A DNA stretch of 64,000 nucleotides, from assembly GCA_000092065.1 (NCBI GenBank), contig CP000594.1. The stretch is one strand, 5' to 3'. Each line of letters starts with the position of its first letter. Within the stretch, counting starts at the first letter, position 1. A program made the translations under genes and the position numbers. A model generated the notes under the pieces. That model saw nothing but the letters and a program-made list of their open reading frames with translations, searched no databases and was not told where the DNA came from. Below are positions 3,888 to 19,912 of this stretch, one piece after another. The DNA comes from Ostreococcus lucimarinus (taxonomy: Eukaryota).

Positions 3888-4150
3888 CGGTGCGTCAACG
3901 CCCGTCATGGGCGTTCGATTCTCGACCTCGTTGCCACGGATGGTGTTGGCGGAAACCTCGAGTGATAGCGCGGGTGAGTCTCGAACGAACGGGTGAGTTA
4001 CGGGTGAGTCTCGAACGACTGTTTCTTTTCTCGGCCACGCGCGCGTTTTCTTTTGTCCGCCTCTCTCTCTCGCGCGCGTCGTCGAGTGATGCTGGTGCCG
4101 CTCGTGACGGATTTAAGGGCTTGAACACCCGCGTGTAAAGGCAGACACTT

Positions 4151-4230
4151 TATATAGCACTTTGGGAGGTTAAAAGGTGTCCCAAAGTCTCATACATTGG
4201 CCTATACTTTGGCAACATCCCGCGCTTTGA
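4151..4230. repeat. Intergenic repeat module R1 copy A: TATATA-box-like + hairpin CTTTGGGAGG-ttaaaa-...-TCCCAAAG + ATCCCGCGCTTTGA
   Basis: ~80% identical to 16791..16870. The stem shows a compensatory change between copies (GGGAGG/TCCC vs GGGCGG/CGCCC). Confidence 0.6.
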
Positions 4231-4585
4231 TTACAGTACAGTAATATAACCCCCGCCAATGCGCGGGATGAATGGCATACATTCCATAGTATATGGGGAC
4301 CGGACCGGCGGGACGTGTGATTTTTACCGTATGGGTCACGACTCGTCATTCGGAGTACTCGTATGGAATAATGAAACACCATAACTGCATTTACTTTTTG
4401 GTTCATTAAAAAAACCGTACGGGCATTTACTGCAGAATTGGCCACTTTTCGCGCGGGTTTCACTGGACACGTGTCAAAAACGTGGCTTTTCTGAAACTCG
4501 ATTTTTGCTAGGGTTTAGCGTCTCAGTGTCCCGACGGAGATACAGTGCGGGGATCCCGTCGGCAGCACTCTCCGTCGCGCACGCA

Positions 4586-7500: not shown

Positions 7501-10500
7501 GGTTGAAGTATACGAGGGACGCAGTTTCAACGGTCGAGGCATGCAGTTCATATCCAGCGTATCAGATGTCCGCCGCGCAACTGAATCCATCGGTGACCTT
7601 TCTAGACCGACATGGCAAAGAGTTTATGGAACTGCAAGTATGGTTGACGCGGGTCGTGAAGAAGTATATAGTATTCACGCAGATGACGTCGCAAATACAA
7701 AGCCAGTTGATAATTCTGGTGACTGGTCGGACTTTTTGACACTGAAGTGGAGTCATATTTCTGTTGGGCCCACAGGCCATGTATGGGCGATTCGTAAACC
7801 TTACGGCAACGCTTATCACTGCATGCCACATCAAACCTCTTGCAAGACCAAATGGGAGTATACCAGGCTCACCCAGCTGGATGCTGGAAGTTTGTACGTT
7901 TGGGGGGTGACGTACTCGGGATACGTATACAGGCATCTCGTGAACACACACGAGGGTTCATGGACACGTGTAAATGCGCCAGATACGATGAAGCATATCT
8001 CAATAGGCCCAAGTGGCGATGTCTGGGCGGTATCGACGACGAATAAAGTATATTTCTGCGTGCATCCGTGTACTGGATCGTGGCGTGTCATCGGCGCATC
8101 CGCACCCGTAAAACGTCTCATATTTACTGTGAACAATGACAAATATATGGCTCGTGTCGATTTGAAGACTGACGGTAGTATTAATTTCAACGCTGGTCAT
8201 AAAGTAGCTGGCTGGTTGAGTCTAAGCGGAATCACGTACGCCACGAGCGGTCTCAACTATCTTTCCCTAAACTCGCGTTATTGGGAACATTATAGTGGCA
8301 TGAATGGCTACTGGTCGCCAGCCCAATACTCGTGCTCGAACGGCCTCGTTTCTGTGACTGGGCTCGTGAAGACAAAAAATCATGGCTGGGGGCAGGTCAT
8401 CGGTACTCTCCCGTCAGGGTGTCGTCCGACGAAAGCACTCATCTTCACCACGAATAACCACGATGAGCAGGCGCGAGTGAACGTATACGCCGACGGGACG
8501 ATCAAATGGGGTGCCGGCGGCAAGGGTCACGGATGGTTGAGCCTAAGTAACATTGTCTTTTCGACCAGTGGCAACGCGCTTTTACCTCTGAGCAATGGTT
8601 GGGCGCACTACAGTGGCACGAGTGGCTACTGGTCGCCTGCTGAGTACTCGTGCGCCGACGGCCTCGTGGTCTTGAGTGGATTAGTACGCGGTAGTAACTG
8701 GGGTTCTACTATCGGCACTCTTCCTCCGGGTTGTCGTCCGAAACAAGCTCTCATCTTCACCACGAACAACAGCGATAAGCAAGCGCGAGTGAACGTGTCA
8801 CCGGGGGGGGTGATCAAATGGTCACGTGGTGGCAAGGGCCACGGTTGGTTGAGCCTGAGCGGCATCGTATTTGCAATGACTGGGCTGCAGTTGATGCCTC
8901 TGAGCAACGGTTGGAAGTACTATAACGGCGCGAGAACGAGCGGGTATTGGGCACCCGCACAGGTCGCGTCTGTGCGCGGCCTCACCGTTGCTCAAGGCCT
9001 TATCAAAGGCGGTGGATGGGGTGGAACAATGGCAAAAATTACCGGTGGATGCGGATATATGAGTGATTTAATGTCCCTGACTAAGAAGAACGCGGGTCAA
9101 CATAGCACAGCACATAATGGCGTTGCAAGCCGCCCGTTGACGTCGACTCCAAATGGGCGCTGGGGGGGTGGCACGTGCACGCACACGAATCATGCGTCCG
9201 ACCCATGGTGGCGACTTGATATGGGGACGACGAGGACCTTGAGTTCGGTGGAGTTGTTGAATCGCAACGACTGCTGCAGTGACCGCTTTATCGGCCTCCG
9301 CGTCTACATCAGCAATCATAACTCCTACGTAAAGGATCATCCGAGTAACAAACAGTGCGGGCAGACGTTGGGATCGCCGAATACTGCCTGGAATATATTC
9401 GACTGCGGCGATGCCATCTCTGGGCGCTACGTATACGCCACCCTATATGGTAAAGCAGCACCGTTAACTATCTGCGGTGTCAGGATGTTCGAATCAAATA
9501 CGATGATAAAGCAGCTGGACGTTGGAAAGCGCTATGTTTACGGAACCAGTACGAATGGTCATCTTTTTAAAATCCGTGCCGATGGGGGCGAGGATAACTG
9601 GTCCCTCGTACATCGTTATAGCGAATTCGGCGGTATTGATGCCAATTATGTTTCAGTCTCACCGCATTCCGAACAATCGTCGTTCCTGTGGGTTACAAAC
9701 CAAGCGAACGAAATTTATCGCCAATCCATCGGAATACAAATCTCTTCCATGAGAGTCGCCTCGGCAATCGTAACTGCTTACAAAGGTGTGGGATTTACCG
9801 GTGATAGTCTGCCCCTGACTTCCGGTTTTTATAACTTTAAGACGCTCGAGGCAGACTCAGACGCCGGATTTAAGCTCACGAACCTCAGAGCGTTTGTGCG
9901 AAGCATCAAGTCTATAAGGATCCATCCAGACTACGAGGTTGAGCTGCGCGGTTATAATCAAGCACGAGCAGTCGTCACCTCTAGTACAATGGGAGTACAC
10001 GATTTTCATAAACTGGACACAGAGGGCAAGGAACACGAAGAGAATATAGTTGGAGCTACAAGATTTCCGCGACCGAGCGGTGTCTCACGCAAATCGACGT
10101 TTATGCCAATCGAAGCAACTACGCTAGGAACATGGATCCAAACACGAACTGCCAACGTTTACGTGATGTCAGATCTATCAGCCACCCCAAGTGCTCTCAT
10201 TAGGTACATTGCTGCGTACGGCGATGCAGAATATTGCAAAATGATCATGTTTCACGTGCGTCACGGCGATGAAGTCTCTGTTGTGCCTGAGGAGGCTGGA
10301 TATGCGACTTTTGGCATCAGAGATGCGTCTTCCGACAAGTGTCAGAATCGCGACGGTGTACTATCGCTCTGGCGTATAAAGCAAACTCCGAGATTGGCGC
10401 GCCGCGCGACAGATGCAGGCTACGGCATCGGAAAGTTGAAATTCTCGATTTTGGGAGGCTGGACGGGAGAAATAGCCTCAATGAAAGTGATGAGAAAACT

Positions 10501-10996
10501 CACTTATGTCCAAGGGTACTCCGGTGGCCGTCATCGTAATGAGGGAGGAAATCCAAAACGGACTCCACGAGAATGTCGGGACATCGCTAAAAGCAAGGGT
10601 TTACCTGCCTGGGGATTTCGAACCGGCCGTCATAATGATCCTAACTGGCGGTTTACGTGCTTCTTTTATGAGCACGGATTTGGGAGATTTGCGGGTAATG
10701 ATGACACAATGCATATGACAGGATGCGTCGATATATCCCGAAAGACCGCAAATGGCTGCGCACTGAGCGCATCAGCCAGCGCGCGGTTGGGTTCTGAAGA
10801 CTTAGAGACTTACCCTCGCGCGATGGCGAGACCAAAGGCGAGACTGCTAGAATCAGACTGGTACTATATCTCTGTCTGCTGTGTTCTCGTCAGCCTAGCG
10901 TCTGTGGTAGCGTTCGTCGCATTTCGACGCTCGCGAACGTCGGGCAAACGCATTCTACTTGAACGAGTCTCAACGAACTACGGTGCCACAATTTAA
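4586..10996 (+). CDS. Giant (~2,100 aa) membrane-anchored multi-lectin protein: N-terminal Ala/Gly-rich region, beta/gamma-crystallin-like segment, tectonin-type beta-propeller repeats, three ~105-aa tandem repeats, F5/8-type-C/fucolectin-like domain, C-terminal TM helix + short tail
   Basis: Single ORF listed 4505..10996 with a TTG start; the first ATG is at 4586 (MSKKSDP) and an alternative at 4748 (MVGLIR) is followed by a hydrophobic signal/anchor. Three tandem repeats (IFTxNNxDxxARVxxxxDGxIxxxxGxKxxGWLSLS...GYWSPAxYSCxxGLV). A CCSDRFIGLRVYI fucolectin-like motif. C-terminal WYYISVCCVLVSLASVVAFVAF TM helix. Confidence 0.7.
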   Translation: MSKKSDPLYVPVNTCEDDTVGLLRTIDEVQVDEGETNVTSPEDNNCDGGVRVVDMVGLIRNGLHARRCASRRRSTAIIHVLLTVVLASFLRSTLAFERTDGFQGELEDTAHEGPGASRSSVANETAALGCAWGIPCPPVAQAVVDVVSDPHGAAEDAANLAGDGLNSAVDAAAAGATFLYDQGTAAASAAAAAATELASAGFEFAKGAATSAYAMGCSAAAMAWNTATAVYDRMSDPEKFLSDMIDSFPTSLGDLKSLSGKALAVGGEAFVEMNANNPVGRQALAAVKKANEIGGKYGFENLQKFTAVGASLTNRVIPGGGIIFEAVDVVGETAQDAVDTAILIVESMLNALECKVSPVDVMEVIQKVVIEQISSWNAFAKMFEEKKGTDFFYKLDHVICNTLWTVAMPHADLMVTAIGVLLEKVQATCPGVIPADSKPAATLGLIFDASVKGGSMKGVSAEVGIGADIDGNKFCYFGSCAYAGISFGGYGADGTMLAGLSVWKSMDSVPGTSSTFAFAADITMPLLPSFDPGVTFVSNDAGLIGISVSKEIPGGDEPSGEFSVTKGRCVTPVCVKTDGNPCGEGQAAWSDVGSHATAAVEAIKTDECIVAGAGVIEQNGGISVSREIRLPASGVNLLADAEANPTGMKNFKPSSVRIPEGKFLLAFTGGDEAFKGSETVIRSYKSKLNNRLYSMTSFVVSDIAAEFHEEAPKSVGPEHAGSISKCKAMCAVKKHCCNTDESIGSNQYLSCLQACVVRVRGTDERTCNSYCASATTSRHINGYMYNLATSCADVVASEGKLCSTRYGSDRSTCLYGCSIGRDPEQSLAVVKSTGFYMQLPAAHVTPRSTNNLRDRTLSSVIVRAGFVVKLYAGRDLKGQYLTLGSSATLYGNHARFYSSLRGSFPNTKFAWANFNDRTRSIAILEAPVTLYTQPNFHGDHESKLEHAFDYTSLGPTVGDRHVNSIFLREGSVVEVYEGRSFNGRGMQFISSVSDVRRATESIGDLSRPTWQRVYGTASMVDAGREEVYSIHADDVANTKPVDNSGDWSDFLTLKWSHISVGPTGHVWAIRKPYGNAYHCMPHQTSCKTKWEYTRLTQLDAGSLYVWGVTYSGYVYRHLVNTHEGSWTRVNAPDTMKHISIGPSGDVWAVSTTNKVYFCVHPCTGSWRVIGASAPVKRLIFTVNNDKYMARVDLKTDGSINFNAGHKVAGWLSLSGITYATSGLNYLSLNSRYWEHYSGMNGYWSPAQYSCSNGLVSVTGLVKTKNHGWGQVIGTLPSGCRPTKALIFTTNNHDEQARVNVYADGTIKWGAGGKGHGWLSLSNIVFSTSGNALLPLSNGWAHYSGTSGYWSPAEYSCADGLVVLSGLVRGSNWGSTIGTLPPGCRPKQALIFTTNNSDKQARVNVSPGGVIKWSRGGKGHGWLSLSGIVFAMTGLQLMPLSNGWKYYNGARTSGYWAPAQVASVRGLTVAQGLIKGGGWGGTMAKITGGCGYMSDLMSLTKKNAGQHSTAHNGVASRPLTSTPNGRWGGGTCTHTNHASDPWWRLDMGTTRTLSSVELLNRNDCCSDRFIGLRVYISNHNSYVKDHPSNKQCGQTLGSPNTAWNIFDCGDAISGRYVYATLYGKAAPLTICGVRMFESNTMIKQLDVGKRYVYGTSTNGHLFKIRADGGEDNWSLVHRYSEFGGIDANYVSVSPHSEQSSFLWVTNQANEIYRQSIGIQISSMRVASAIVTAYKGVGFTGDSLPLTSGFYNFKTLEADSDAGFKLTNLRAFVRSIKSIRIHPDYEVELRGYNQARAVVTSSTMGVHDFHKLDTEGKEHEENIVGATRFPRPSGVSRKSTFMPIEATTLGTWIQTRTANVYVMSDLSATPSALIRYIAAYGDAEYCKMIMFHVRHGDEVSVVPEEAGYATFGIRDASSDKCQNRDGVLSLWRIKQTPRLARRATDAGYGIGKLKFSILGGWTGEIASMKVMRKLTYVQGYSGGRHRNEGGNPKRTPRECRDIAKSKGLPAWGFRTGRHNDPNWRFTCFFYEHGFGRFAGNDDTMHMTGCVDISRKTANGCALSASASARLGSEDLETYPRAMARPKARLLESDWYYISVCCVLVSLASVVAFVAFRRSRTSGKRILLERVSTNYGATI

Positions 10997-11265
10997 ACAA
11001 ATCATTTCAAACCATCCTATTATTGGCATTGTGGTAAGTACAATCGACCTCACGGAAAAGGCAGGCGGTACTGGCGTCGAAGAGTCGCGTGAGATTTCGC
11101 TTAAGATTTCGGCACCCTCGCTTAAGATCTCTTCAGAATCGAATCTCTGAACGCAAGGCGTGGATGTACATTAAACCATGAACGAGGCGGGACACGGTTC
11201 GATTTTTGGATTACAAGTGTAGGTCTACTTTTACGTTTCGTGGACTCCGCTCGAGTCGGCCGATG

Positions 11266-12075
11266 TCACCATGTCAGGTGTTTCGAGTGCACTAGAGACG
11301 TGACCGCCGATACACAGGACGTCGAGCTCGGCGTGCCTGATTTCACGACTCGGCGACCATGGTTTGAAACCGAAATGACCATCGGCTTCAGGCCCAGGCG
11401 CGGCCGCAATGCTACTTTAAACTTAATTTTTTTTTTTTGAAAAAAGAGTAGTAAGAGTAATAAAAATAAACTTTTTTTTTGTTTGAGTTGGGGCCCCCCC
11501 AACATGATAAAACCGCACATCGACGTTGATGTACCACATGTAAGATTTCTCCGGGAACCAATCGTGTGAGTGAAGTGGTCAAACCAAGCCACGCAACTCA
11601 TCGACCGTAAATTGATACTTGTCGAGACTGCGCTTCGAAGGCAGCGTGCCGCGCGCTCGAGCATTCTTGAGGCACGTCTTACGCAGTATCTTTTCGCGTG
11701 CTGCTTGTAATAATTGAGTTGTCTGTAGTTACCATCGCCGCCGTCCCGCTTCGGCGTATATTGAGCTCTGCTGTAGGCCGGACTCTCGTCCACGTTCTCG
11801 TGGCACGCCTGCTTCTGGCTGCGTCCAGTAGCTCGGGAGTTGAATAAGCCGTCACGCTTCTCTCTCATGTAGGCACTTTTACGTTGATGGAGCTCTCCAG
11901 CTGGAATGTCCTTTTCGAGAACTCTCACGTCCGCGTCGCCAAACGTGAAGATTGGATGCCGTGCGTATTTATGCGAGGCAAGGCGCGCTCTGATCGAACC
12001 TGTCGTCGATCCGATGTACGTTTTGTCACATTTCGCATTATCGCTATACATTTCGTACACGCATCCCGACGGCAT
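11266..12075 (-). CDS. GIY-YIG family (homing-type) endonuclease; C-terminal ~90 codons run through a poly(A/T) tract without a stop (possibly decaying)
   Basis: N-terminus CVYEMYSDNAKCDKTYIGSTTGSIRARLASHKY matches the GIY-YIG motif (GIY...YIGS...R...H; compare I-TevI GIYQIKNTLNNKVYVGSAKDFEKRWKRH). Downstream E...N (REKRDGLFNS) fits. Low-GC codon usage. Confidence 0.55.
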   Translation of the reverse strand: MPSGCVYEMYSDNAKCDKTYIGSTTGSIRARLASHKYARHPIFTFGDADVRVLEKDIPAGELHQRKSAYMREKRDGLFNSRATGRSQKQACHENVDESPAYSRAQYTPKRDGGDGNYRQLNYYKQHAKRYCVRRASRMLERAARCLRSAVSTSINLRSMSCVAWFDHFTHTIGSRRNLTCGTSTSMCGFIMLGGPQLKQKKSLFLLLLLLFFQKKKIKFKVALRPRLGLKPMVISVSNHGRRVVKSGTPSSTSCVSAVTSLVHSKHLTW

Positions 12076-12244
12076 TTGTCCTGGTTACCTATCTATCCCT
12101 AAGAAAATATTGTTGCCTCCTCCTGCGGTTTGCAGTCACATTCGAGAGACCATAGGTACTCGTGTCGCTGCGTGGGGTGCAAGGTCCGGGATGTAGATAT
12201 CGAACCGCCCGATTTCACACCTGGACGTTCGTGATCCGTCGAGA

Positions 12245-12435
12245 CCTGACGAAATGACGAACTTGTTTTGTCGTCCCGAAATTCGTCAGCCCGTCGTTCG
12301 GTCACACTTTGTGTGTACCAATGATGAAAATGACGAAATGTTAAAATATTTTAATGTTTATTTTTATTTTAGATCTATGACAAGCAACAGTGTAGACCTT
12401 TATGAAAACAGTTCGTCATTCGTCATTTCGTCAGG
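12245..12435. promoter_or_regulatory. Inverted repeat (CCTGACGAAATGACGAAC / GTTCGTCATTCGTCATTTCGTCAGG) flanking an AT-rich core between the D5 3' end and the GIY-YIG 5' end
   Basis: Arms at 12245..12262 and 12411..12435 are near-perfect reverse complements. The core 12325..12375 is >80% AT. Confidence 0.35.
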
Positions 12436-12500
12436 ATCCAAACCATGGTCTTTTTGGTGTCTTGTTGAGTCTTCATATTGCAAATGTACGAATTACAAAA

Positions 12501-14711
12501 TTAGTATGAGCACCAGACGACCGCCGGCGCGAGCTCCGTCTCCCCCGTGTACCCATTGTTCTTCAGCCACTCGAAGCACCCGTCGCGGTCAATTTCCCAA
12601 TAAACGCCCTTCTCGTCCCTACCTTGCCTCAGGTGGTCCTCTTGCATTGGGACCCTGTGGCCCTTTTCCTTCTTGAAGAAGTCCTTGAGCTTATTACCGA
12701 CCTTCGTCGCGCTATCTTGACCGCGCGCAGCCGCTGGCAACCACGTCTGGTATTCGATGAAGATGTCACTGTTGCGGATTTTATTTCCAACCCACTTCTC
12801 AGGGAATTCAACAGTGACGCAATGCTCAAACCATCGAGTGAACTTGGGCATGCATCCACGCTTCATTTCCGAATACGCATCGGTCGTAGGTCTGTCTTTG
12901 ACGTAGTCAAAGGTCGATAGGTCGAGCCCCATGAGATGGTCGTAGATTGCCCTCAAGTTCCTCGGATCCCTGATGTAAACCTCGCGGAATTCCTTCAAGA
13001 ATCCAGTCTGGTCGTTCAAGTGCGTGAGCAGTGGCTCCATGACGACGAACCGACGATCACTCATTTCCAGAAAGACCGGGTAGTCGTCGTTCGAGAAAAA
13101 TAGGAACCCAACCAGATTCATGATGACGTACAGCTGCACGTGCTTCGGGTTGATTGTGAAACTCGTGTCCGTGAGCATCGACTTCAGCAACTTTCTATAC
13201 ATTTTCATGATGCACTCATCTGCTTCGTTCAACGCGAGGCACTTTTTGCCTTCAATCATGTTCGCATGCGTCCCAAATATGTCCTTTTTCGGATCAGCCG
13301 TCTCGTGAAACGTCTTGCCCATGAGCGCGTGAAGCAGGTGCAGGAAAGTGCCCTTGCCGGTACCTTGGACTCCTCGAAACACGAGCGACGTGATCGGCTT
13401 CTCTTCGGGTCTCTGGAAGAGACACGCGAACCAATTCGAAGCGTACTCGAGCGCATTTTCTGAACCGCCACATAGCACCAGGAGGAGCTCGAGGAAAGGC
13501 TTCACGTCGCCCTCTTTGCCCAGTTCACTGGGGATGCCTTCGACCGGGTAGCCTCGCCACAGATTGTACGTCTTGTTGCTGCAGTTTTTCGGGACGACGT
13601 CGAGGTTATCGTACACCCGTTTATTGTCGTCGTCGAGCCACTTTTCGATGAACCCGTTTTTCTTGCCTTTCCTCAAGACACCGTTCTCATCGACAAAGGA
13701 GAGCTCTCGATAGCGCCTCACCAAAGCGGCCTCGCTGTACTTGGTAATGTCCCCGGTGGTTCCATAACAGCTATCGTCGCAGAAGAGGTCCTTGGTTAAG
13801 ATCTTTGCGACGTGCTTCTCGAACTCACGGCGGACCTCGATGTAGCCCGCAGACGTGCCCTCTTTGATTTCGTTCTGCTCCTTTTCGGTGATACCGGTCA
13901 CCAAACACCCAACCTCAAAGCGAAACTGTCTGGGCTTGCAGTTGCCATGGTTTTTCACGGTGAGCACGCCGAGACCGACCTCGGCGACGTAAAAGTGATT
14001 CCCACCGCCCCTTCCATTGCCTTCGTGGAAGCCCCCACAGCAAGGACATTGGCCCACAGTGGTGCCTCGCTGTGGGCGACATTGGTCGCATTCAAAATCA
14101 TACGATGTCGCTCCACTGAGCCAATGTATGCCCGTGAACCCCATTTCCTCGAGCAAAGGTGTCACAGATGCTTGCGTAAAGCTGCACTCCGTGTCCGCGC
14201 GTTCGACCTTGTGACCGACTTTGCCATCAAGGAAACTGTACAAATCGTTGGGCATCGGTGGTAAATTGTTGATGTCGCCTCGGAGTAGCTCGTAGCCCGG
14301 GGCATCGGCACCGACCACGTAGTTACCCGTCGTACGGATATCGACGAACCCTTCGATGCCCACCGTGCCTTTCCAATCGCCGAATCGTTCTTCGTCCCAT
14401 GCGAAGTACGTGTGGTACCCGCCTGATCGCGTTTTGACGATATACGCGCCTTCCCCGCCGACCTTGCGCGTCAACATTTCTTCCGTGAGTTCAAACTCGC
14501 ACTTGCCACCGTAACAATCCCAGTCGATGACGAGGACACGGTTCGGTCGCCCTGTCAGCACGCCGTACATTTCTCCTGGGATGACTTTCTGCGTATTCCG
14601 TTCATAGTTTGCTTCATCGAGGAACCCCCTGCCGCATGTTGGCTCCTTGTCCTGGTCGAGTGGGATCAGATGCATGCCGTTCGTAAATTCTCTGGCGTCC
14701 ATATATATCAC
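12501..14711 (-). CDS. D5-like primase-helicase: N-terminal PrimPol (archaeo-eukaryotic primase) domain, D5_N, SF3 helicase (NCLDV/PLV/virophage/phage-P4 type)
   Basis: 736-aa ORF. PrimPol motifs (VLVIDWDCYGG...GGYHTYF...FVDIRTTGNYVVGA). Walker A VFRGVQGTGKGT and Walker B CLALNEADE of an SF3 helicase. Low-GC codon usage. Confidence 0.85.
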   Translation of the reverse strand: MIYMDAREFTNGMHLIPLDQDKEPTCGRGFLDEANYERNTQKVIPGEMYGVLTGRPNRVLVIDWDCYGGKCEFELTEEMLTRKVGGEGAYIVKTRSGGYHTYFAWDEERFGDWKGTVGIEGFVDIRTTGNYVVGADAPGYELLRGDINNLPPMPNDLYSFLDGKVGHKVERADTECSFTQASVTPLLEEMGFTGIHWLSGATSYDFECDQCRPQRGTTVGQCPCCGGFHEGNGRGGGNHFYVAEVGLGVLTVKNHGNCKPRQFRFEVGCLVTGITEKEQNEIKEGTSAGYIEVRREFEKHVAKILTKDLFCDDSCYGTTGDITKYSEAALVRRYRELSFVDENGVLRKGKKNGFIEKWLDDDNKRVYDNLDVVPKNCSNKTYNLWRGYPVEGIPSELGKEGDVKPFLELLLVLCGGSENALEYASNWFACLFQRPEEKPITSLVFRGVQGTGKGTFLHLLHALMGKTFHETADPKKDIFGTHANMIEGKKCLALNEADECIMKMYRKLLKSMLTDTSFTINPKHVQLYVIMNLVGFLFFSNDDYPVFLEMSDRRFVVMEPLLTHLNDQTGFLKEFREVYIRDPRNLRAIYDHLMGLDLSTFDYVKDRPTTDAYSEMKRGCMPKFTRWFEHCVTVEFPEKWVGNKIRNSDIFIEYQTWLPAAARGQDSATKVGNKLKDFFKKEKGHRVPMQEDHLRQGRDEKGVYWEIDRDGCFEWLKNNGYTGETELAPAVVWCSY

Positions 14712-15181
14712 ATAAGAAAAGAATTCTTTAAGCCGTGTTTTTCCTGGTCACATCGGCGCGATGACTGATTTTCAAGTTTTTCAACAGCCTGGAAAAGCAC
14801 GCCAGCACGCCCCACTGGTCAACATTTTGCCACTTTTTCGACGAGATCGGGGTACTGCAAAGCACACGGCGAAGACGGGTGGCCGATGATCCATGTGTCC
14901 GTGTCTTCTCTGATGATTCGCTCCCGTTCATGGCTCAAGTGGTCGCGCGACCTCGCGCGTGAACGAAGGTGCCAAATTTTAGGTACCAGAGGTGCCCATT
15001 TCTTCGTGGTGAGATGGTCCCTCGTGTACCACGCCGCTCCCCTTTAAGTATGAAAAGTTATGTCCAATATATTGCGCGCGATGTCCGATGGTACACCATA
15101 CAATTTCATAGTTAAGCCACACTTATTATATGACGACAGTGCCTACCTGTCGGTGGTCACGGAAAAGTTGCGTCTCAGACT

Positions 15182-15320
15182 GAGGATGGCGTGGCTCATG
15201 CGAGCTATATATACCTCATATATACATATATTAACACTTATAACACTATTAATGTACAATTGATTGGATGAGGTGCTCAGTCCACCCGCGCGAGGTCAAC
15301 AGCAGCAATTGTCTATGCAC
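15182..15320. repeat. Direct repeat R2 copy A (~140 bp), includes the last ~20 nt and 3' flank of the metallothionein-like CDS
   Basis: ~90% identical to 16869..17008. Confidence 0.6.
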
Positions 15321-15643
15321 TTGGAGCATGAGTTTTTGCACTCGCACGACGGACACGCGCAGGAGGTGCATCCGCACGACTTACACGTGGTCGCATCGGG
15401 ACACGCGCATTTGTCGGGGCCACAAGCATCACAGTCTTTCGGGCAGCACGCCTTGTCCGTGGACTCAGATTGTACCGTCCGTGCTGCAACCCGCGTCGGG
15501 CGCGAGACGACGCGCACGGCGCGTGGCGCGGTTCTTGACAATACGAAATCTGGTATCTGCGTACTCTTTACCTTAACGGCGGAGACTTTGAGCATTGTTG
15601 CGTCGAGGAATGGGCCAAGGGTAAGTAACCTCGTGGTCGGCAC
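15296..15643 (-). CDS. Metallothionein-like cysteine-rich protein (19 Cys in the C-terminal 50 aa) with a Cys-free, transit-peptide-like 65-aa N-terminal extension
   Basis: C-terminus CCPKDCDACGPDKCACPDATTCKSCGCTSCACPSCECKNSCSKCIDNCCC. The N-terminus is S/T/R/V/A-rich with few acidic residues. Head-to-head with ferritin. Confidence 0.5.
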   Translation of the reverse strand: MPTTRLLTLGPFLDATMLKVSAVKVKSTQIPDFVLSRTAPRAVRVVSRPTRVAARTVQSESTDKACCPKDCDACGPDKCACPDATTCKSCGCTSCACPSCECKNSCSKCIDNCCC

Positions 15644-15684
15644 GTGCCCGCCTTATACAATCGACGCCTGAAAAGGGAGACTGG

Positions 15685-16542
15685 ATGAGATCGAGGGCAC
15701 CCCGTGAGCGATCACTCTTCGACGCGGAACTCGTTCCTGTAGACGGCCAGCCACCACTCGAACGACCATACGGCAGCACAAAAGTACATCCACAACGTGT
15801 ACGTATCGAAATGGCTGCCTATACTCAAGCGACGTTAACAGCACCTTCGTCGTCGACAGCCGTAAGCAATTCGAAGATAAGACTACGCCGTTCACGAACA
15901 ACTACGCGCACACATTCTGATCCGTCCGAAAGTACGCCGTTGAGTGAAGAGGCGCAAATCATAGTTGATGCATCGGAGGCGTACCCAGCGCAGACAAGCG
16001 TGGATTATTCGTTCGCAAGGAGTGGGTTCAGTAACCAGTGTGAACGAGCACTCAACGAGCAAATCAATGTCGAGTACAATATTTCGTACGTCTATCACGC
16101 CATGTGGGCGTACTTCAATCGTGACAATATCGCATTGGCTGGCTTTGCTGAACACTTTCGAAAAGAGTCACTGGAGGAGCGTGCGCATGCGGAACAACTC
16201 ATGGAGTACATGAACTTACGAGGCGGCAAAGTTGAGCTCCAACAATTGTTACCACCACAGAGTGAATACGATCGCCCGGAGAAAGGATGCGCACTATTAG
16301 CCCTGGAGCTGAGTTTGAGTCTCGAAAAGTTGAATAAAGAGAAACTGTGTGAACTGCATCGCGTCGCTGAGGATGCAGGAGACGCACATATGTGCGATTT
16401 TATTGAAGGCGAGTTATTAGACTCGCAGGTTCAAAGTGTGCGACAGGTTAGCGAGATGGTCGCCACGCTATTACGCATGGGACCGCCAGCAGATGGTATG
16501 GCAACTTGGCACTTCGATCAAACCTTACTTGAGGTGGCATAG
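15685..16542 (+). CDS. Ferritin (plant/algal type, with N-terminal targeting/extension peptide; alternative start ATG at 15811)
   Basis: QCERALNEQINVEYNISYVYHAMWAYFNRDNIALAGFAEHFRKESLEERAHAEQLMEYMNLRGGKV...SLEKLNKEKL...WHFDQTLLE matches the plant ferritin consensus (ferroxidase-centre residues E, Y, E..H present). Confidence 0.9.
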   Translation: MRSRAPRERSLFDAELVPVDGQPPLERPYGSTKVHPQRVRIEMAAYTQATLTAPSSSTAVSNSKIRLRRSRTTTRTHSDPSESTPLSEEAQIIVDASEAYPAQTSVDYSFARSGFSNQCERALNEQINVEYNISYVYHAMWAYFNRDNIALAGFAEHFRKESLEERAHAEQLMEYMNLRGGKVELQQLLPPQSEYDRPEKGCALLALELSLSLEKLNKEKLCELHRVAEDAGDAHMCDFIEGELLDSQVQSVRQVSEMVATLLRMGPPADGMATWHFDQTLLEVA

Positions 16543-16652
16543 AAGCGGATTGTATCTCGTTGAGTCTAGTCACTTTCGTGTGCTCGTTTCGTTGGTTTCT
16601 GGTTACGAGTTCTTCCGTTGTTCTAAATATAACATATATTTAGACATATCCA

Positions 16653-16779
16653 AACCCTAGTACAATCACCCTAGGGTTTAGTCAAACTTTAATCAGTTTT
16701 ATCTAAATTAATTTTCATCTGTCGTCGCGAAAGATGAATCCTCGCGACAGAAAAACAGGTCTAAACCTTAAACCCTAAC
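16653..16779. repeat. Cluster of telomere-like / telo-box motifs (AAACCCTAG, CCCTAGGGTTTAG, TAAACCTTAAACCCTAAC)
   Basis: TAGGGTTTAG equals 1.5 units of the plant-type TTTAGGG telomeric repeat. Similar motifs occur at 4509..4518 and 19091..19106. Confidence 0.5.
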
Positions 16780-16790
16780 TTCGGTTGGGC

Positions 16791-16870
16791 TATATAGCAC
16801 TTTGGGCGGTTAAAACCGCGCCCAAAGCCCCATATATTGTCCCATGTTTCGGCCAAATCCCGCGCTTTGA
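16791..16870. repeat. Repeat module R1 copy B (hairpin CTTTGGGCGG-ttaaaa-CCGCGCCCAAAG)
   Basis: Homologous to 4151..4230; abuts R2 copy B. Confidence 0.6.
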
Positions 16871-17008
16871 GGATGGCGTGGCTCATGCGACCTATATATG
16901 CCTCATGCGTACATATATTAACATTTATAAGGGTATTAATACATAATTGATTGGATGGGGTGCTCAGTCCACCCGCGCGAGGTCAACAGCAGCAATTGTC
17001 TTTGCACT
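16869..17008. repeat. Direct repeat R2 copy B
   Basis: ~90% identical to 15182..15320. Confidence 0.6.
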
Positions 17009-17040
17009 GATCAGTCCGTGTTTGACAAGGAGACGTTCGC
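16983..17040 (-). pseudogene. Fragment of a metallothionein-like gene 3' end (...PCQTRTDQCKDNCCC*), duplicated with R2
   Basis: Reverse-strand translation ends ...QCKDNCCC-TGA, paralleling ...SKCIDNCCC-TGA of the 15296..15643 gene. No upstream ORF. Confidence 0.3.
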
Positions 17041-17177
17041 GCGAAAGTGAGTGGAGTGAGATAAGCAAAATTGGGATTTTTTGTTATTTAAAATGACTTC
17101 TTTTATATCGACGATCTTGTCTCGATTATACGCTGACCTTCGCGGGTGCTTGTTGTACTTGTACGTACACGACCCAG

Positions 17178-18968
17178 CTAGTCCGCTTTGTTGTGGATCT
17201 TGTCGCACTTGTCGAAAGCGTATGCGGCGACGGTACTGCTGACCCCGGACGGATCAAAGACTGATGCGAGCTCAGCTGCCGCGCGGACCGCATCCGTCTC
17301 TGATTCCGCGCTGTTTACGTTTTTCATCGCAGAAAAATAGCCGGTAGTCTTACCAACCGCCTCCATACCTTGGTCGAGACTATTTGCCGCCTTTTTCAAA
17401 GCAGCAAGCTTACTCCCAGCTTCGGCAACGTTAGCACCGGCACGGGCTGCAGCCTTGGCCCCAGTTGTCGCAGCTCCACTACTCCCAGCGGTCGCTACAA
17501 ATGCAATAATTTCCAACGGCCCGAGAATCATATTAGTTACCGCGGAGCCACAAGCGGCGTCATCTTTTGCGGCACCCATACCGCAGTTCACCCACTTCTC
17601 ACCGCTCACTGTTGGAGGTTGGCCCCAGCAAACTGGACCGACGCCATTGTAACCACTGCGACATTTCTTGTAACACAAACCAGCGTCGTACTCCAAACCA
17701 GGAGGACACGTGGCTGCTTCAAAGCCGTGTGAGCAGTATATCTTTTTCGGGCAACTCGGCGCAATTCCATGTGCGTACCCATTGCCGGTGCAAGAAACGC
17801 CGCACAAGTTGCAGCCAATCCGGTTCGGATGACTGCTAGGGCAAGGAGGATAACAAAGTCCAAGACAGTCTTGTCTTCCTTTTCTGCTACAGTGCCTTCC
17901 GCCGCATACGAGTCTTGTCCTCGCGTTCCCCAAAAGGCGTCGACCGTTGGCCGCATGTTCGCCAAGGGTGGATGATGATGATGACCAGTACTCCCAGCCA
18001 CACTGGACGGTACCAACACCACGACCGCGGTTACCTCTGTTACAAAAAAGACCATGATCATTCCAGCCCGAGCCGCAGCGTTGATGGCAGTCGTAGCCAA
18101 ATCTGGCATAATTACCGAGGTGGTGGCATTTGGTATAGCACAAGACGCCCCCTGCAATTGTTTCTTTATTGGAAGGGCAATGAGACGGGACTTTGCCCAC
18201 ATCGCGGCCGTATGAGTTTTTCCAACAGAACTCGACGGTGATGGCGTTCGCAACGACAGCACCCTTCGCATTCGACGCAGCACTTACACCATCACTAAAG
18301 CTGTCCCATTTTCCGCCCAACCGAGCAGATAGCATCGCTTCGTGTACCTCCAATAATGCCTTGTCTTGCTCAATCTCTTCGTGCAGTTTTTGCATATATG
18401 CTGAGACGTTCACTGGCGCCGGTTGCGTCGCACCCTCATCCACCGTGGCCTGCCAAACGAAGTTCGAATGCTCATCATTAGCAAGATTTTCATCGTCACG
18501 CCTGCGCAAATGTTGTTTAAGCATCTTAATTCGTAATAGCGTCGCGTTTCTTCCGCCCTTGGTCGATATGAACATGCCATCCTCGGCTCCTGCCGCATTC
18601 AACCTGGGTTCGGCACCTGGGATCACCTCCCCAGGACCCGCACTCCCGAGCAACGCGTGGACTTCTGGACCGAATTCCATCTCGTCAACGAATTCGTCCA
18701 AGTGATCAGGGAGATCAAATTCACCCTGGATCGAGTGCGCGGACAATCCCAGCAACGCAGACGGCCCTTTCGGTGCACTTTCACGGTACGAGAACGAAAT
18801 CACACCCACAGCAAACAGCACAGCGGCCTGCTTCACGGTACACCAGCCGCATGCCGCCGCTTTTCGCCCTTCACGTTCCTCCGTTTGTTGCCAACTGCGA
18901 GCGCCGTCGTTCGACGAGCCGGGCGCGCCGTATGTCTCACTAATCGCCGCCGCTTCGTACGTCGGCAT
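17178..18968 (-). CDS. Cysteine-rich type-II membrane protein (N-terminal signal anchor, coiled region, GCC2/GCC3- or EGF-like Cys repeats, C-terminal Ala-rich module)
   Basis: 596-aa ORF. TM helix AAVLFAVGVISFSY. Repeated CxxC...GY...G..C spacing (CYPPCPSSHPNRIGCNLCGVSC, CYKKCRSGYNGVGPVCWG). C-terminal AAARAGANVAEAGSKLAALKKAANSLDQG resembles the Ala-rich N-terminal part of the 4586..10996 protein (QALAAVKKANEIGGKYG). Confidence 0.6.
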   Translation of the reverse strand: MPTYEAAAISETYGAPGSSNDGARSWQQTEEREGRKAAACGWCTVKQAAVLFAVGVISFSYRESAPKGPSALLGLSAHSIQGEFDLPDHLDEFVDEMEFGPEVHALLGSAGPGEVIPGAEPRLNAAGAEDGMFISTKGGRNATLLRIKMLKQHLRRRDDENLANDEHSNFVWQATVDEGATQPAPVNVSAYMQKLHEEIEQDKALLEVHEAMLSARLGGKWDSFSDGVSAASNAKGAVVANAITVEFCWKNSYGRDVGKVPSHCPSNKETIAGGVLCYTKCHHLGNYARFGYDCHQRCGSGWNDHGLFCNRGNRGRGVGTVQCGWEYWSSSSSTLGEHAANGRRLLGNARTRLVCGGRHCSRKGRQDCLGLCYPPCPSSHPNRIGCNLCGVSCTGNGYAHGIAPSCPKKIYCSHGFEAATCPPGLEYDAGLCYKKCRSGYNGVGPVCWGQPPTVSGEKWVNCGMGAAKDDAACGSAVTNMILGPLEIIAFVATAGSSGAATTGAKAAARAGANVAEAGSKLAALKKAANSLDQGMEAVGKTTGYFSAMKNVNSAESETDAVRAAAELASVFDPSGVSSTVAAYAFDKCDKIHNKAD

Positions 18969-19090
18969 AGTTTGTTCCTTTAGTCGAGCGTCGGATTGTG
19001 GCGAAACGGCGGGTGCCCTCGGTCGGTCGGACGGACTTTCGCGGTCGGTCGGACGAGGGGCCCGTTGGCGCCCCGCGGGTGTGTGTACCA

Positions 19091-19106
19091 GCCCTTAGGG
19101 TTTAAT
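19091..19106. repeat. Telomere-like motif CCCTTAGGGTTTAATG at the island/host boundary
   Basis: Sequence seen directly; lies just upstream of the GC jump at ~19,200. Confidence 0.4.
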
Positions 19107-19222
19107 GTATATTAATGTATTTATGGGTATCATCCCGCGCAATTCGAGGGGTAGATTACTGTACTGTACAGTAACCCTCTAGTAGAACACGCTAGGTGAA
19201 ATCAAGCGCCGCGACCGTACGC

Positions 19223-19304
19223 TTATTCTCGTCGGCGTTTGCCGCTGCCGCTGCTACTGCTACTGCTACTGCTACTGCTCGAGGACGAGCTCGAAGACGA
19301 ACTT

Positions 19305-19342
<38 letters not shown>

Positions 19343-19912
19343 CCACGTCGATTCATCCTCGTCTTCATCCTCTCTTAATTCATCCGCAAACTCGCGCGAA
19401 CTGCGCACCAAAGCCTCTTCAAACTGCCGCTGCGCCTCGCTCCGCGCGCCTTCGAATCGAAACACCAACCGCGGCGTGTGTTTCATCGTCAACATCTTCG
19501 ACAGCATCGTCCGTATTTTCTGCGCGTTCCGCTCCAACGCGTTCCCCGCGATGTGTTCCTCCCCCATCCGCGTCGTTCCGTACAGCACGTGCACCGTCTT
19601 AAAATCTTTCGACACGCGCGCGTCCATCACGTTCGCCCCCGTGCCGTCAAACTTGTGCGCCAGCTCCTCGTGCACCACGCGCTTCAGCGCTTTGCGCACG
19701 CGCGCGCTCTGTCGAATCTGCGCCTTGTCCTGATCGATCGTCGTCCGCTCCACCTCGATCGGGCGTCGCGCCGCGCGCGGGCGCCGCGTCGTCGTCCCCG
19801 CGAAGTGCGCGCCGCTCGCCGCGCTCGCCGCGCCGCGCTCGCGCGCGCCCGCGCGCGCCGACGACGCCGTCGCGGTCAGGCGCATCAGCGCTCGCGTCGC
19901 GCGTCGACGCAT
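19223..19912 (-). CDS. rbfA: Ribosome-binding factor A (RbfA)-like organellar protein with presequence and acidic poly-D/poly-S C-terminal tail
   Basis: Core RVRKALKRVVHEELAHKFDGTGANVMDARVSKDFKTVHVLYG...KIRTMLSKMLTMKHTPRLVFRFE resembles RbfA. ATG at 19912 (MRRRATRAL...). The listed ORF extends upstream (to 20422) only because the GC-rich sequence stays open. Confidence 0.5.

Follow-up and report, generated by a model that had tools for sequence, protein, structure and literature searches.

Background

In Ostreococcus lucimarinus, a gene for a Cys-rich, metallothionein-like protein and a gene for ferritin stand head to head, their start codons 215 nt apart (15595 and 15811), in a segment flanked by direct repeats. 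The question raised by this locus is whether the two genes make up a compact cassette for metal homeostasis, with the repeats at its borders and possibly with a bidirectional promoter, as had been proposed in a preliminary description, or whether their pairing has another origin. We considered a stretch of 64,000 nt of contig CP000594.1, hereafter called the window, to which all the positions below refer, and we compared the locus with wild sequences, which are short metagenome contigs, and with related Ostreococcus (the loci compared carry L numbers). Several proteins of the window match entries of O. lucimarinus strain CCE9901 exactly, on a chromosome of 708,927 bp, in agreement with the attribution to Mamiellales in the preliminary description.

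The GC content is 0.49-0.54 over window positions 1-18000 and 0.54-0.71 over most of the remainder; in round terms, about 50-53% stands against about 60%. This value and the GC3 of the ferritin gene (0.50, versus 0.65-0.70 in core genes and 0.86 in a relative) resemble those of the low-GC outlier regions of Mamiellophyceae. Such outlier regions are described in the literature, and haplotype imbalance has been reported for O. lucimarinus in metagenomes. Genes of the mobile-element type, for a primase-helicase and a GIY-YIG protein, are found nearby. No known RNAs or tRNAs were found within 14000-19500. Two scans of IMG/VR, one with the primase-helicase as a check for viral origin and one with the short Cys-rich protein, were run with a method that reaches close relatives only and returned no relatives.

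The Cys-rich gene and its family

The Cys-rich gene is represented by the following features:
15214..15659, minus strand: Cys-rich gene unit, delimited by homology to copies elsewhere, with 92-96% identity to L001, L007 and L008, where the flanks differ
15296..15595, minus strand: long-form metallothionein-like CDS, 99 aa and stop
15455-15595, minus strand: presequence of the long-form CDS, 47 aa, Cys-free
15296-15454, minus strand: core of the long-form CDS, 52 aa with 18 Cys, and stop

The mechanical maximum ORF runs from a GTG start over 115 aa (15296-15643, minus strand) and its first ATG is at 15595. A Cys-free, transit-peptide-like extension of 65 aa had been claimed for this protein; the extension is present, with a length of 47 aa from the first ATG. 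In L001, L007 and L008 there is a further in-frame upstream ATG (MSDRGH...) and, if that were the true start, the coding sequence of the window copy would be 5′-truncated.

The 18 Cys make up 35% of the 52-aa core, which contains no F, W or Y, no His, and three CC, four CxC and five CxxC motifs; among the remaining residues Lys, Ser, Thr, Asp and Pro abound, and the C-terminus is CCC. Metallothioneins are a compositionally defined, polyphyletic class whose folds depend on bound metal, and in its size, in a Cys content above about 30%, in its scarcity of aromatic residues and His, and in its CC, CxC and CxxC motifs the core has the composition of this class, which bears out the metallothionein-like character first proposed for it. 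By analogy with this class, the most probable role of the protein would be to bind soft metals (Zn, Cu, Cd) via thiolate clusters, and the presequence, which is basic and rich in Ser, Thr and Val, would direct the long form to an organelle. Classical metallothioneins are not known to have a targeting peptide; the long form, if the family is real, would be out of the ordinary as a metallothionein-like protein with natural targeting.

For this protein we obtained no Pfam match, even at E <= 10, and no metallothionein among the PDB chains matching at E <= 10. When 1.84 billion representatives were searched exhaustively with HMMER, the only result was its own cluster, in which no NCBI or UniRef members were found. 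Over the loci and databases searched, the family is restricted to O. lucimarinus-like sequences. It occurs in two forms, the short one of 52 aa and the long one with the extra 47-aa presequence, and it is apparently a newly recognised family, unannotated and lineage-restricted. A review of 2020 reports only one GenBank protein annotated as metallothionein in Ostreococcus. The DNA of the presequence was found only in long-form copies when the window and all the fetched loci were searched by BLAST; a word-indexed search for its donor with the 49-aa N-terminus gave no candidates, and missed the family itself as well.

The lack of Pfam, PDB and distant HMMER relatives, and of any NCBI or UniRef protein in the cluster, is also what could be seen if the Cys-rich ORF were non-coding, that is, either a chance ORF inside a dispersed repeat or an ORF whose real product is on the opposite strand. 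In fact, automated gene calls on several contigs picked an antisense ORF, and one antisense frame is open in 14/14 copies, where synonymous and amino-acid-changing codons stand in a similar ratio. Since the antisense frame performs equally well, the substitution pattern of the Cys-rich frame (segregating sites 6/29 synonymous versus 7/121 nonsynonymous) is not decisive. We nevertheless hold a non-coding ORF to be unlikely. More than 25 copies retain the ATG, the TGA and 18/18 Cys, and all the Cys codons are invariant in 14 aligned copies. The start of the short form coincides exactly with that of the core, which the long form extends by 47 codons in frame, free of frameshifts in 13 alleles. 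A different upstream ATG reads in frame in L019 but not in L021-L026, which leaves the proximal ATG as the only consistent one. Conservation is higher in the core than in either flank (97-100% identity among family copies, versus 61-89% for the 3′ flanks), and the upstream module described below precedes three unambiguous or Pfam-supported genes with the same polarity. The long ORF of the window haplotype is intact in 7/7 wild contigs containing the whole gene, and MERC, which was built from Tara eukaryotic metatranscriptomes, contains a long-form sequence of another allele, with a 3′ flank of the L001 type; this evidence is six-frame, so the strand of the transcript is not given.

The ferritin gene

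The following features were assigned to the ferritin gene:
15811..16542, plus strand: CDS of a plant-type ferritin, 243 aa, or 285 aa if translation began at the in-frame ATG further upstream, at 15685
16543..16867, plus strand: ferritin 3′ tail, from the comparison with wild haplotypes
16678-16764: indel of 87 nt in the 3′ tail, absent from wild haplotypes
16791-16867: hairpin-containing end of the tail, with a second copy at 4151-4230

The product matches Pfam PF00210 at 5.7e-30 over profile positions 3-141 of 142 and, over residues 63-241, the plant ferritins in PDB at 9e-60 (about 1e-59), so that the assignment of a ferritin gene to the plus strand in the preliminary description is upheld. 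Its placing of the O. tauri ferritin on chromosome 2 is also correct (gene ostta02g03400). In the alignment with the solved plant ferritin 7XZ4, the motifs inVEyn, sYvYh, lEEraHae, lslEkl and dsQvq face the same residues, and the Glu, Tyr, Glu-Glu-x-x-His, Glu and Gln at these positions are the established residues of the ferroxidase centre. About 60 N-terminal residues precede the domain; they resemble a transit or extension peptide, in which Ser and Thr abound (19 of the first 47). In the reference annotation, model XP_001421298 covers a partial protein of 180 aa, and the O. tauri ferritin CDS is 729 nt long. By analogy with the O. tauri protein, the ferritin of the window would store or buffer iron and would have an N-terminus of the organelle type. 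Ferritin has been reported as central to day/night iron handling in Ostreococcus.

The direct repeat

The two copies of the direct repeat and the spacer to the left of the Cys-rich gene were delimited as follows:
14712..15219: block A, spacer of 0.5 kb that separates the start of the primase-helicase gene from the 3′ terminus of the Cys-rich gene; positions 15181-15219, the last 39 nt of the block, are the outer part of the left repeat
15181-15321: left repeat copy, made of the outer 39 nt from block A and of the 3′ flank, stop codon and last 7 codons (CIDNCCC, stop) of the Cys-rich gene, with 2 extra nt
16868-17008: right repeat copy, 3′ remnant of a second, minus-strand Cys-rich gene, built of the same parts as the left one, with terminal codons that read CKDNCCC, stop

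BLAST aligned the two copies over 141 nt without gaps, at 90% identity and E 1e-51, and found no more than these two copies in the 64-kb window. The direct repeats of about 140 bp and about 90% identity reported from the first inspection are thus real, as is the degenerate metallothionein end with its stop codon in the right copy, which is read on the minus strand from 17008 to 16985. On this composition, the repeat is the common 3′ end of two metallothionein-like gene copies together with 39 nt of the adjoining spacer. Being a piece of the Cys-rich gene from its 3′ end, the right copy shows that a duplication or rearrangement did happen in the past, in agreement with what had been supposed.

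In the 3′ flank the repeat copies are 85% identical to each other and 89% and 82% identical to L024, which makes them near-closest relatives. This closeness would fit an in-place duplication followed by divergence equally as well as a recombination between diverged haplotypes. A descent of the copies from two allelic lineages, at which the I/K difference hinted, was considered and is not retained as a firm claim, as their 3′ flanks are of the same type and close to each other.

The arrangement of the window is carried by at least 23 independent metagenome contigs and is nearly invariant. Precisely, the junction is identical in all the eight wild contigs that were read, six of which span both repeat copies, with both copies identical and with the same spacing of 1687 bp. 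The ferritin/Cys-rich arrangement is not an assembly artefact.

Wild haplotypes and relatives

Block A is 90-97% identical in wild contigs carrying the Cys-rich gene (L024, L026, L028, L007, L021) and equally in the six wild contigs in which ferritin follows directly (L009, L012-L016). In these six, block A joins ferritin via an AT-rich spacer of about 45 nt, with no Cys-rich gene. On the 3′ side of ferritin, the right repeat copy is missing from wild contigs, in which other sequences follow the gene. Conversely, the Cys-rich gene occurs without adjoining ferritin in L001, L007, L008, L021 and L024-L028. L024 is collinear with window positions 11564-15450 (96.8% identity) and then jumps to a homolog of 18999-19104, so that its layout is helicase, block A, short Cys-rich gene and upstream module; this layout looks ancestral-like.

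L003-L006 and O. tauri have in common an MFS-(COG3)-ferritin context. In related Ostreococcus, including O. tauri, ferritin stands in the context MFS-COG3-ferritin-AAA with no Cys-rich ORF, and none of these neighbours was found in the 64-kb window. Some of the wild "haplotypes" could be paralogous loci or sister species instead of alleles, and any direction and order of the rearrangement events are accordingly tentative.

The second copy of the Cys-rich gene

To the right of the right repeat copy two further features were distinguished:
17009..18998, minus strand: segment in place of the coding sequence of the second copy; it holds a gene of 596 aa, XP_001421481 (CDS 17178-18968), with an exact protein match
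18999..19176, minus strand: upstream module of the Cys-rich family, before the 596-aa gene, 91-98% identical to short-form upstream regions

The homology of the right repeat copy to the Cys-rich gene ends exactly at 17008. In the module that follows the replaced segment, GC-rich direct repeats occur together with an AT-rich stretch, a telomere-like TTAGGGTTT (19095-19103) and, around 19150-19179, an imperfect palindrome, and the homology of the module to the upstream regions of the short genes in L019, L021, L022, L024 and L026 comes to within about 30 nt of the ATG. In L010 the distal part of the module lies ahead of a gene with an ABM domain, with the same polarity; altogether the distal module stands before four different genes, always with the same polarity. 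The 596-aa gene is flanked on both sides by flanks of the Cys-rich gene, again of the same polarity. The right copy is accordingly a shell, in which the last 7 codons and the 3′ flank (16868-17008) and the upstream module (18999-19168) survive and the 596-aa gene lies where the coding sequence was. Such a gutted copy offers a clear example of a gene that ended up between the upstream and downstream flanks of another gene, useful for understanding the turnover of gene content in variable regions.

A further possibility, that a transposable element brought ferritin to this site and that the repeats are its termini or its footprints (LTR-like repeats or a long target-site duplication), we regard as highly improbable. 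Direct repeats do flank a segment of 1.5 kb, and the primase-helicase and GIY-YIG genes are close by. The repeat, however, contains the coding end of a gene and on the left is continuous with that gene, it exists in only two copies within the window, and neither a transposase nor an integrase lies inside. Moreover, ferritin has the same left neighbour in wild contigs without the repeat structure, and what stands 3′ of it there is other sequence with no right copy.

A broader reading, to which we give a small chance, is that the flanks act as portable shells that swap coding sequences by recombination (those of the short and long Cys-rich genes, of the 596-aa gene and of the ABM-domain gene), as a eukaryotic form of cassette exchange, and that the common haplotype, with an organelle-targeted metallothionein beside ferritin, is an adaptive metal-handling variant maintained in populations. 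The parts of the shell would be, in this case, the upstream module, with its palindrome, its telomere-like repeat and a promoter-like region, and the AT-rich 3′ flank. If true, cassette exchange would be a mechanism generating diversity of gene content.

The intergenic region and the cassette hypothesis

The sequence between the two start codons is composed of two parts:
15596..15659, minus strand: the only native upstream sequence retained by the left Cys-rich copy, 64 nt, including CACGTG at 15641-15646
15660..15810, plus strand: ferritin upstream region, common to wild haplotypes without the Cys-rich gene, with 97% identity from 15648/15660 onward in L009-L016

In L001, L007 and L008 the homology extends upstream for 120 nt or more beyond this part and reaches the distal module, whereas that of the window copy stops at 15659; the left Cys-rich copy is fused, 64 nt before its ATG, to the upstream region of ferritin. 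The CACGTG that had been pointed out in the shared region as a promoter cue is present. In the window, however, this hexamer was observed 25 times against 24.5 expected and, being at chance frequency, a single copy is without statistical weight. The hexamer belongs to the 64 nt brought by the Cys-rich unit, and haplotypes without this unit lack it ahead of ferritin.

The hypothesis that the locus is a functional metal-homeostasis cassette, co-regulated from a shared bidirectional CACGTG promoter and mobilised or duplicated as a repeat-bounded unit, has in its favour the head-to-head orientation with 215 nt between the starts and the metal-related nature of both genes. A haplotype so common and almost invariant across many samples would also fit a favoured arrangement. 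We judge it improbable all the same. The pairing is absent in L003-L006, in O. tauri (by gene numbering) and the other related Ostreococcus, in the six wild contigs L009 and L012-L016, and at all the other loci of the Cys-rich gene. The right repeat goes with the module 2 kb further right and not with the end of a cassette, the segment has no second copy in the window, and the parts of a would-be mobile unit, which has two repeat copies in the window and no mobility gene inside, occur separately in wild contigs. The Cys-rich copy, furthermore, has lost its native distal upstream module, and the CACGTG was brought by the Cys-rich unit. The claim of a compact cassette bounded by repeats does not hold, the adjacency being specific to one haplotype, and that of a potential bidirectional promoter is unsupported, as the adjacency is not conserved and CACGTG is not enriched. 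Co-regulation within this one haplotype may exist, but none of the results speaks for it.

Proposed origin of the locus

The structure of the locus, its polymorphism and the relationships within the Cys-rich family can be read directly from the alignments. On these grounds we consider it probable that rearrangements put the locus together as a mosaic, at the edge of a structurally variable region with low GC on an O. lucimarinus chromosome, and that it is not a designed or mobile cassette; the pairing of the Cys-rich and ferritin genes would be a product of DNA rearrangement in that region rather than a conserved metal-handling unit. An ordinary plant-type ferritin gene has left, on this reading, its MFS-COG3-ferritin-AAA context and now lies between an intact and a gutted copy of the Cys-rich gene. 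A segment with the end of the spacer and the Cys-rich gene may have been duplicated, with replacements following at recurrent junction modules and at short junctions that are AT-rich or show microhomology.

O. lucimarinus thus has a ferritin gene without its conserved neighbourhood, in a polymorphic low-GC region, with neighbours that vary between natural haplotypes. This relocation bears on the variation of iron-related traits within a globally abundant picoalga.

Comparison with known systems

The pair of genes in the window resembles the gene pairs with bidirectional promoters in its head-to-head orientation and in the 215 nt between the starts. It differs from them in that the adjacency is not conserved and one side of the intergenic region arrived with the Cys-rich unit, which has lost its own distal upstream module.

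The core of the Cys-rich protein is similar to metallothioneins in its small size, in its 35% Cys, in the lack of aromatic residues and His, and in its CC, CxC and CxxC motifs. No sequence similarity was detected between the window protein and Pfam Metallothio or the solved vertebrate, crustacean, plant Ec and SmtA metallothioneins and, unlike metallothioneins, the family is lineage-restricted, ends in CCC and has one form with a 47-aa presequence.

The ferritin shares with O. tauri ostta02g03400 and with soybean ferritin-4 (PDB 3A68/3A9Q) the ferritin domain, the motifs of the ferroxidase centre and an N-terminal extension of about 60 residues, and its CDS is equal in length to that of O. tauri. 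It differs from O. tauri and from the GC-rich relatives in standing outside the MFS-COG3-ferritin-AAA context, at a locus which is structurally polymorphic in nature.

As for the low-GC outlier regions of Mamiellophyceae, namely the big outlier chromosome, with its candidate mating-type haplotypes, and the small hypervariable one, the events in the window are of kilobase scale, and the likeness is drawn independently of any assignment of the window to a chromosome; it consists in the lower GC content and in the divergent haplotypes and rearrangements seen at this locus in natural populations.

Genes of the interval and their setting

Between two copies of a direct repeat we found, as the preliminary description had proposed, a Cys-rich ORF on the minus strand and a ferritin ORF on the plus strand. 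The ferritin ORF, with its ATG at 15685 or 15811 and its stop at 16542, matched Pfam Ferritin at 5.7e-30 and solved plant/chloroplastic ferritins at ~1e-59, with the ferroxidase-centre motifs aligned; the reference model XP_001421298 is a 180-aa partial, and the full 243-aa ORF is present at 15811-16542. Several window proteins were exact matches to O. lucimarinus CCE9901 entries on a 708,927-bp chromosome. The neighbouring genes considered here are the following:

17178-18968, minus strand, 596-aa ORF, exact match to XP_001421481
2136-aa lectin-like ORF, exact match to XP_001421296
269-aa ORF, GIY-YIG domain protein, exact match to XP_001421478
12501-14711, minus strand, primase-helicase ORF, 736 aa from a GTG, Pfam DUF5906, PHROG DNA primase at 2e-30

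The GC content of window 1-18000 is ~50-53%, whereas that of most of the remainder is ~54-71%, and to the right of the low-GC part there are ordinary eukaryotic genes (mitochondrial carrier, ABC-F, HECT ligase and MIF4G/MA3 protein). Within the low-GC part the primase-helicase adjoins the GIY-YIG gene (11266-14711, minus strand), and this segment is 96.8% conserved in the wild contig L024. Both kinds of gene are characteristic of viruses and of mobile elements; a scan of IMG/VR, which reaches close relatives only, found no close viral relative.

The Cys-rich gene family

The Cys-rich ORF spans 15296-15643, and its first ATG, at 15595, gives a protein of 99 aa. By composition its core is metallothionein-like, having 18 Cys in 52 residues, neither aromatic residues nor His, and CC, CxC and CxxC motifs. 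No match was obtained with Pfam families and solved metallothioneins, and word-indexed and exhaustive HMMER searches returned nothing beyond the protein's own 90% cluster, whose 13 members include none from NCBI/UniRef. A back-translated scan of metagenome contigs gave 15 further loci, most of them encoding a short form of ~52 aa, M(A/T)CCPKDCDACGPDKCACPDATTCKSCGCTSCACPSCECKNSCSKC(K/I)DNCCC*, without N-terminal extension. The window gene is a long form, in which a 47-aa presequence (Cys-free, basic, Ser/Thr/Val-rich) precedes the same core. When the upstream regions of the two forms were aligned on their common anchors (CCCGCGGGGCGCCAACGGG, CCATTCCTCGACGCA and GCGTGCTGCCCG), the long form had ~147 nt, comprising a new ATG and the presequence, in place of 23 nt holding the short-form ATG. 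The family is small, lineage-restricted and made of two forms.

Long forms outside the ferritin context (L001 64-189 and its equivalents in L007 and L008) have an extra upstream ATG (MSDRGHISPRGANG...) in frame with the presequence, and a 12-nt duplication (TTCCTCGACGCA), also in frame, between the two ATGs. The window copy does not carry this further ATG, and the long form may start at either of the two. In L002, a 34-kb contig of a related low-GC region, there are nine tandem 81-nt repeats (12114-12855) and a Cys-rich copy with frame-breaking indels (10158-10389), which may be a pseudogene or reflect an error in long-read assembly.

The direct repeat and a second copy of the Cys-rich gene

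The direct repeat, present in only two copies within the 64-kb window (15181-15321 and 16868-17008), covers 141 nt without gaps at 90% identity (BLAST E 1e-51). On the minus strand the left copy ends in CIDNCCC* and the right one in ...CKDNCCC*, the latter being, as previously noted, the degenerate last codons and stop of the Cys-rich gene. Precisely, the alignment of the right copy with the 3′ ends of Cys-rich genes stops at 17008, past the last 7 codons.

The other end of this copy was located through L024, which is collinear with window 11564-15450 at 96.8% and then passes directly to a sequence homologous to window 18999-19104. Along L024 the helicase is followed by block A (the spacer that lies left of the Cys-rich gene), a short Cys-rich gene and an upstream module. 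In the window, the same module sits upstream of the 596-aa gene, and it aligns with the short-gene upstream regions up to CGTTTCGCCA, ~30 nt ahead of either start codon. The minus-strand order is thus:

19168->18999, module
18968->17178, 596-aa CDS
17008->16985, last 7 codons and stop of a Cys-rich gene
3′ flank of that Cys-rich remnant
16906->16868, block A, 39 nt

The right repeat and the module are therefore what remains, at either end, of a second Cys-rich gene; the 596-aa gene has taken the place of its coding sequence. The direct repeat is accordingly the 3′ end common to two Cys-rich gene copies with the adjoining 39 nt, the right copy pairing with the module, and not the boundary of a cassette. 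Both repeat copies have the same flank type and are close to each other and to L024; they may have diverged in place or have originated from different haplotypes.

Coding status of the Cys-rich ORF

More than 25 copies have retained the start and stop codons as well as all Cys, and identity between copies is 97-100% in the core vs 61-89% in the 3′ flanks. Segregating sites were 6/29 synonymous vs 7/121 nonsynonymous; one antisense frame is likewise open in 14/14 copies with a similar substitution pattern, and therefore substitutions do not settle the strand. Independent evidence for the polarity of the Cys-rich frame comes from the distal module, which precedes four different genes (short form, long form, ABM-domain gene in L010 and the unambiguous 596-aa gene), always in one orientation.

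A long-form sequence, P0285 (ERR1712159_198179), occurs in MERC, which was assembled in six frames with Plass from 775 Tara eukaryotic metatranscriptomes; a long-form locus is therefore represented in RNA. This allele, from a six-frame source, has the L001-type 3′ flank and not the window type. It reads ...DNCCC-C-PRAGGVGSCPAGHTFIG, with a Cys at the TGA stop of every genomic copy followed by the translation of the L001-type flank, and could represent a stop-less variant allele or an assembly quirk.

Adjacency of the Cys-rich gene and ferritin

The window arrangement is real and common: it was found in at least 23 contigs from many samples, with an identical junction in all 8 window-type contigs read and an intact full-length Cys-rich ORF in 7 of them, the eighth ending inside the gene. 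Six of these 8 spanned both repeats, with identical copies and a spacing of 1687 bp.

Six other wild contigs (L009, L012-L016), 97.3-97.8% identical to the window in the ferritin block, pass from block A (14900-15223) through ~45 AT-rich nt to the ferritin upstream region; they lack the Cys-rich unit (15214-15659) in its entirety, with homology starting again exactly at TACAATCGACG. Conversely, L001, L007 and L008 have the unit without ferritin, and their upstream homology extends at least 120 nt past the point where the window copy stops; of its native upstream sequence, therefore, the window copy retains just 64 nt. These comparisons indicate that the adjacency is haplotype-specific.

A CACGTG palindrome, proposed as part of a shared bidirectional promoter, does lie between the genes (15641-15646), within those 64 nt of the Cys-rich unit. 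The window contains 25 such hexamers vs 24.5 expected, so the hexamer carries no weight. Nothing supports a shared regulatory design, although co-regulation within this one haplotype is conceivable.

Recurring blocks

In the distal module a palindrome is combined with an AT-rich stretch, a telomere-like motif and ACACACACCCGCGGGGCGCCAACGGG; the module was found at the following positions:

window 18999-19176
L007 2691-2801
L010 1255-1500
L019, L021, L022, L024 and L026

Its palindrome reaches 38 nt (CCCGGGGGTAGATTACTGTACAGTAATCTACCCCCGGG in L007), it also includes a GC-rich direct repeat, and it occurs at rearrangement junctions as well. The telomere-like (telo-box) motif AAACCCTAR is present 5 times in the window vs 0.23 expected by shuffling (4508-4516, 16652-16660, 16671-16679, 16770-16778 and 19095-19103), each time within a junction or intergenic segment of the low-GC mosaic. 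Two copies flank an 87-nt indel downstream of ferritin (16678-16764, with a small hairpin at 16714-16738), present in the window haplotype and missing from every wild contig that carries ferritin in the other haplotype group.

At window 4151-4271 a copy of the ferritin tail end (80% identical to 16791-16870) lies immediately next to a copy of the palindrome of the module (cf. 19168-19130). The sequence downstream of ferritin in wild contigs is unlike that of the window and varies among the contigs, which have an ABM gene, a giant ORF or, inverted, the module. The region is thus a mosaic of few recurring blocks. The 4151-4271 piece lies ~300 nt upstream of the giant lectin-like gene; L010 and L013 have the same junction after ferritin, and in L009 and L014 ferritin is followed by a paralog of the unit with a giant ORF.

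GC content steps from ~50% to ~60% at window ~18000-19300, near the module upstream of the 596-aa gene, and therefore the rearranged block lies where the low-GC region gives way to ordinary gene-dense DNA. The window may be part of one of the low-GC outlier regions, carrying divergent haplotypes, that are described in the Mamiellophyceae literature, where haplotype imbalance is also reported for O. lucimarinus in metagenomes.

Discussion

The structure is real, and its origin is more ordinary than a metal cassette. The alignments document the arrangement and its polymorphism, both forms of the gene, the gutting of the second copy and the ferritin relocation; behind them there was probably duplication with replacement at AT-rich or microhomologous junctions (for example, CCTCATATAT is shared at the left junction, CCGC..TT at the right). 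The Cys-rich core would bind metal via thiolate clusters, and the presequence would direct the long form to an organelle. Two by-products are of moderate interest: a metallothionein-like family that is apparently unannotated and has one form with a presequence, and a structurally polymorphic ferritin locus.

As for ferritin, GC-rich relatives (L003-L006, 62% GC), whose mature ferritin is ~80% identical to that of the window, share the order MFS, COG3, ferritin, AAA ATPase, kinase, Pol zeta, with no Cys-rich ORF beside ferritin. None of these neighbours is present in the 64-kb window. GC3 is 0.50 in the O. lucimarinus ferritin, vs 0.65-0.70 in window core genes and 0.86 in the L004 ferritin (10001-10615). 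Ferritin has moved out of a context kept in relatives. The same context as in L003-L006 is found in O. tauri, where ferritin (ostta02g03400) lies, as the preliminary description had stated, on chromosome 2 with the MFS transporter ostta02g03380, and the protein probably serves as an iron buffer as it does in O. tauri.
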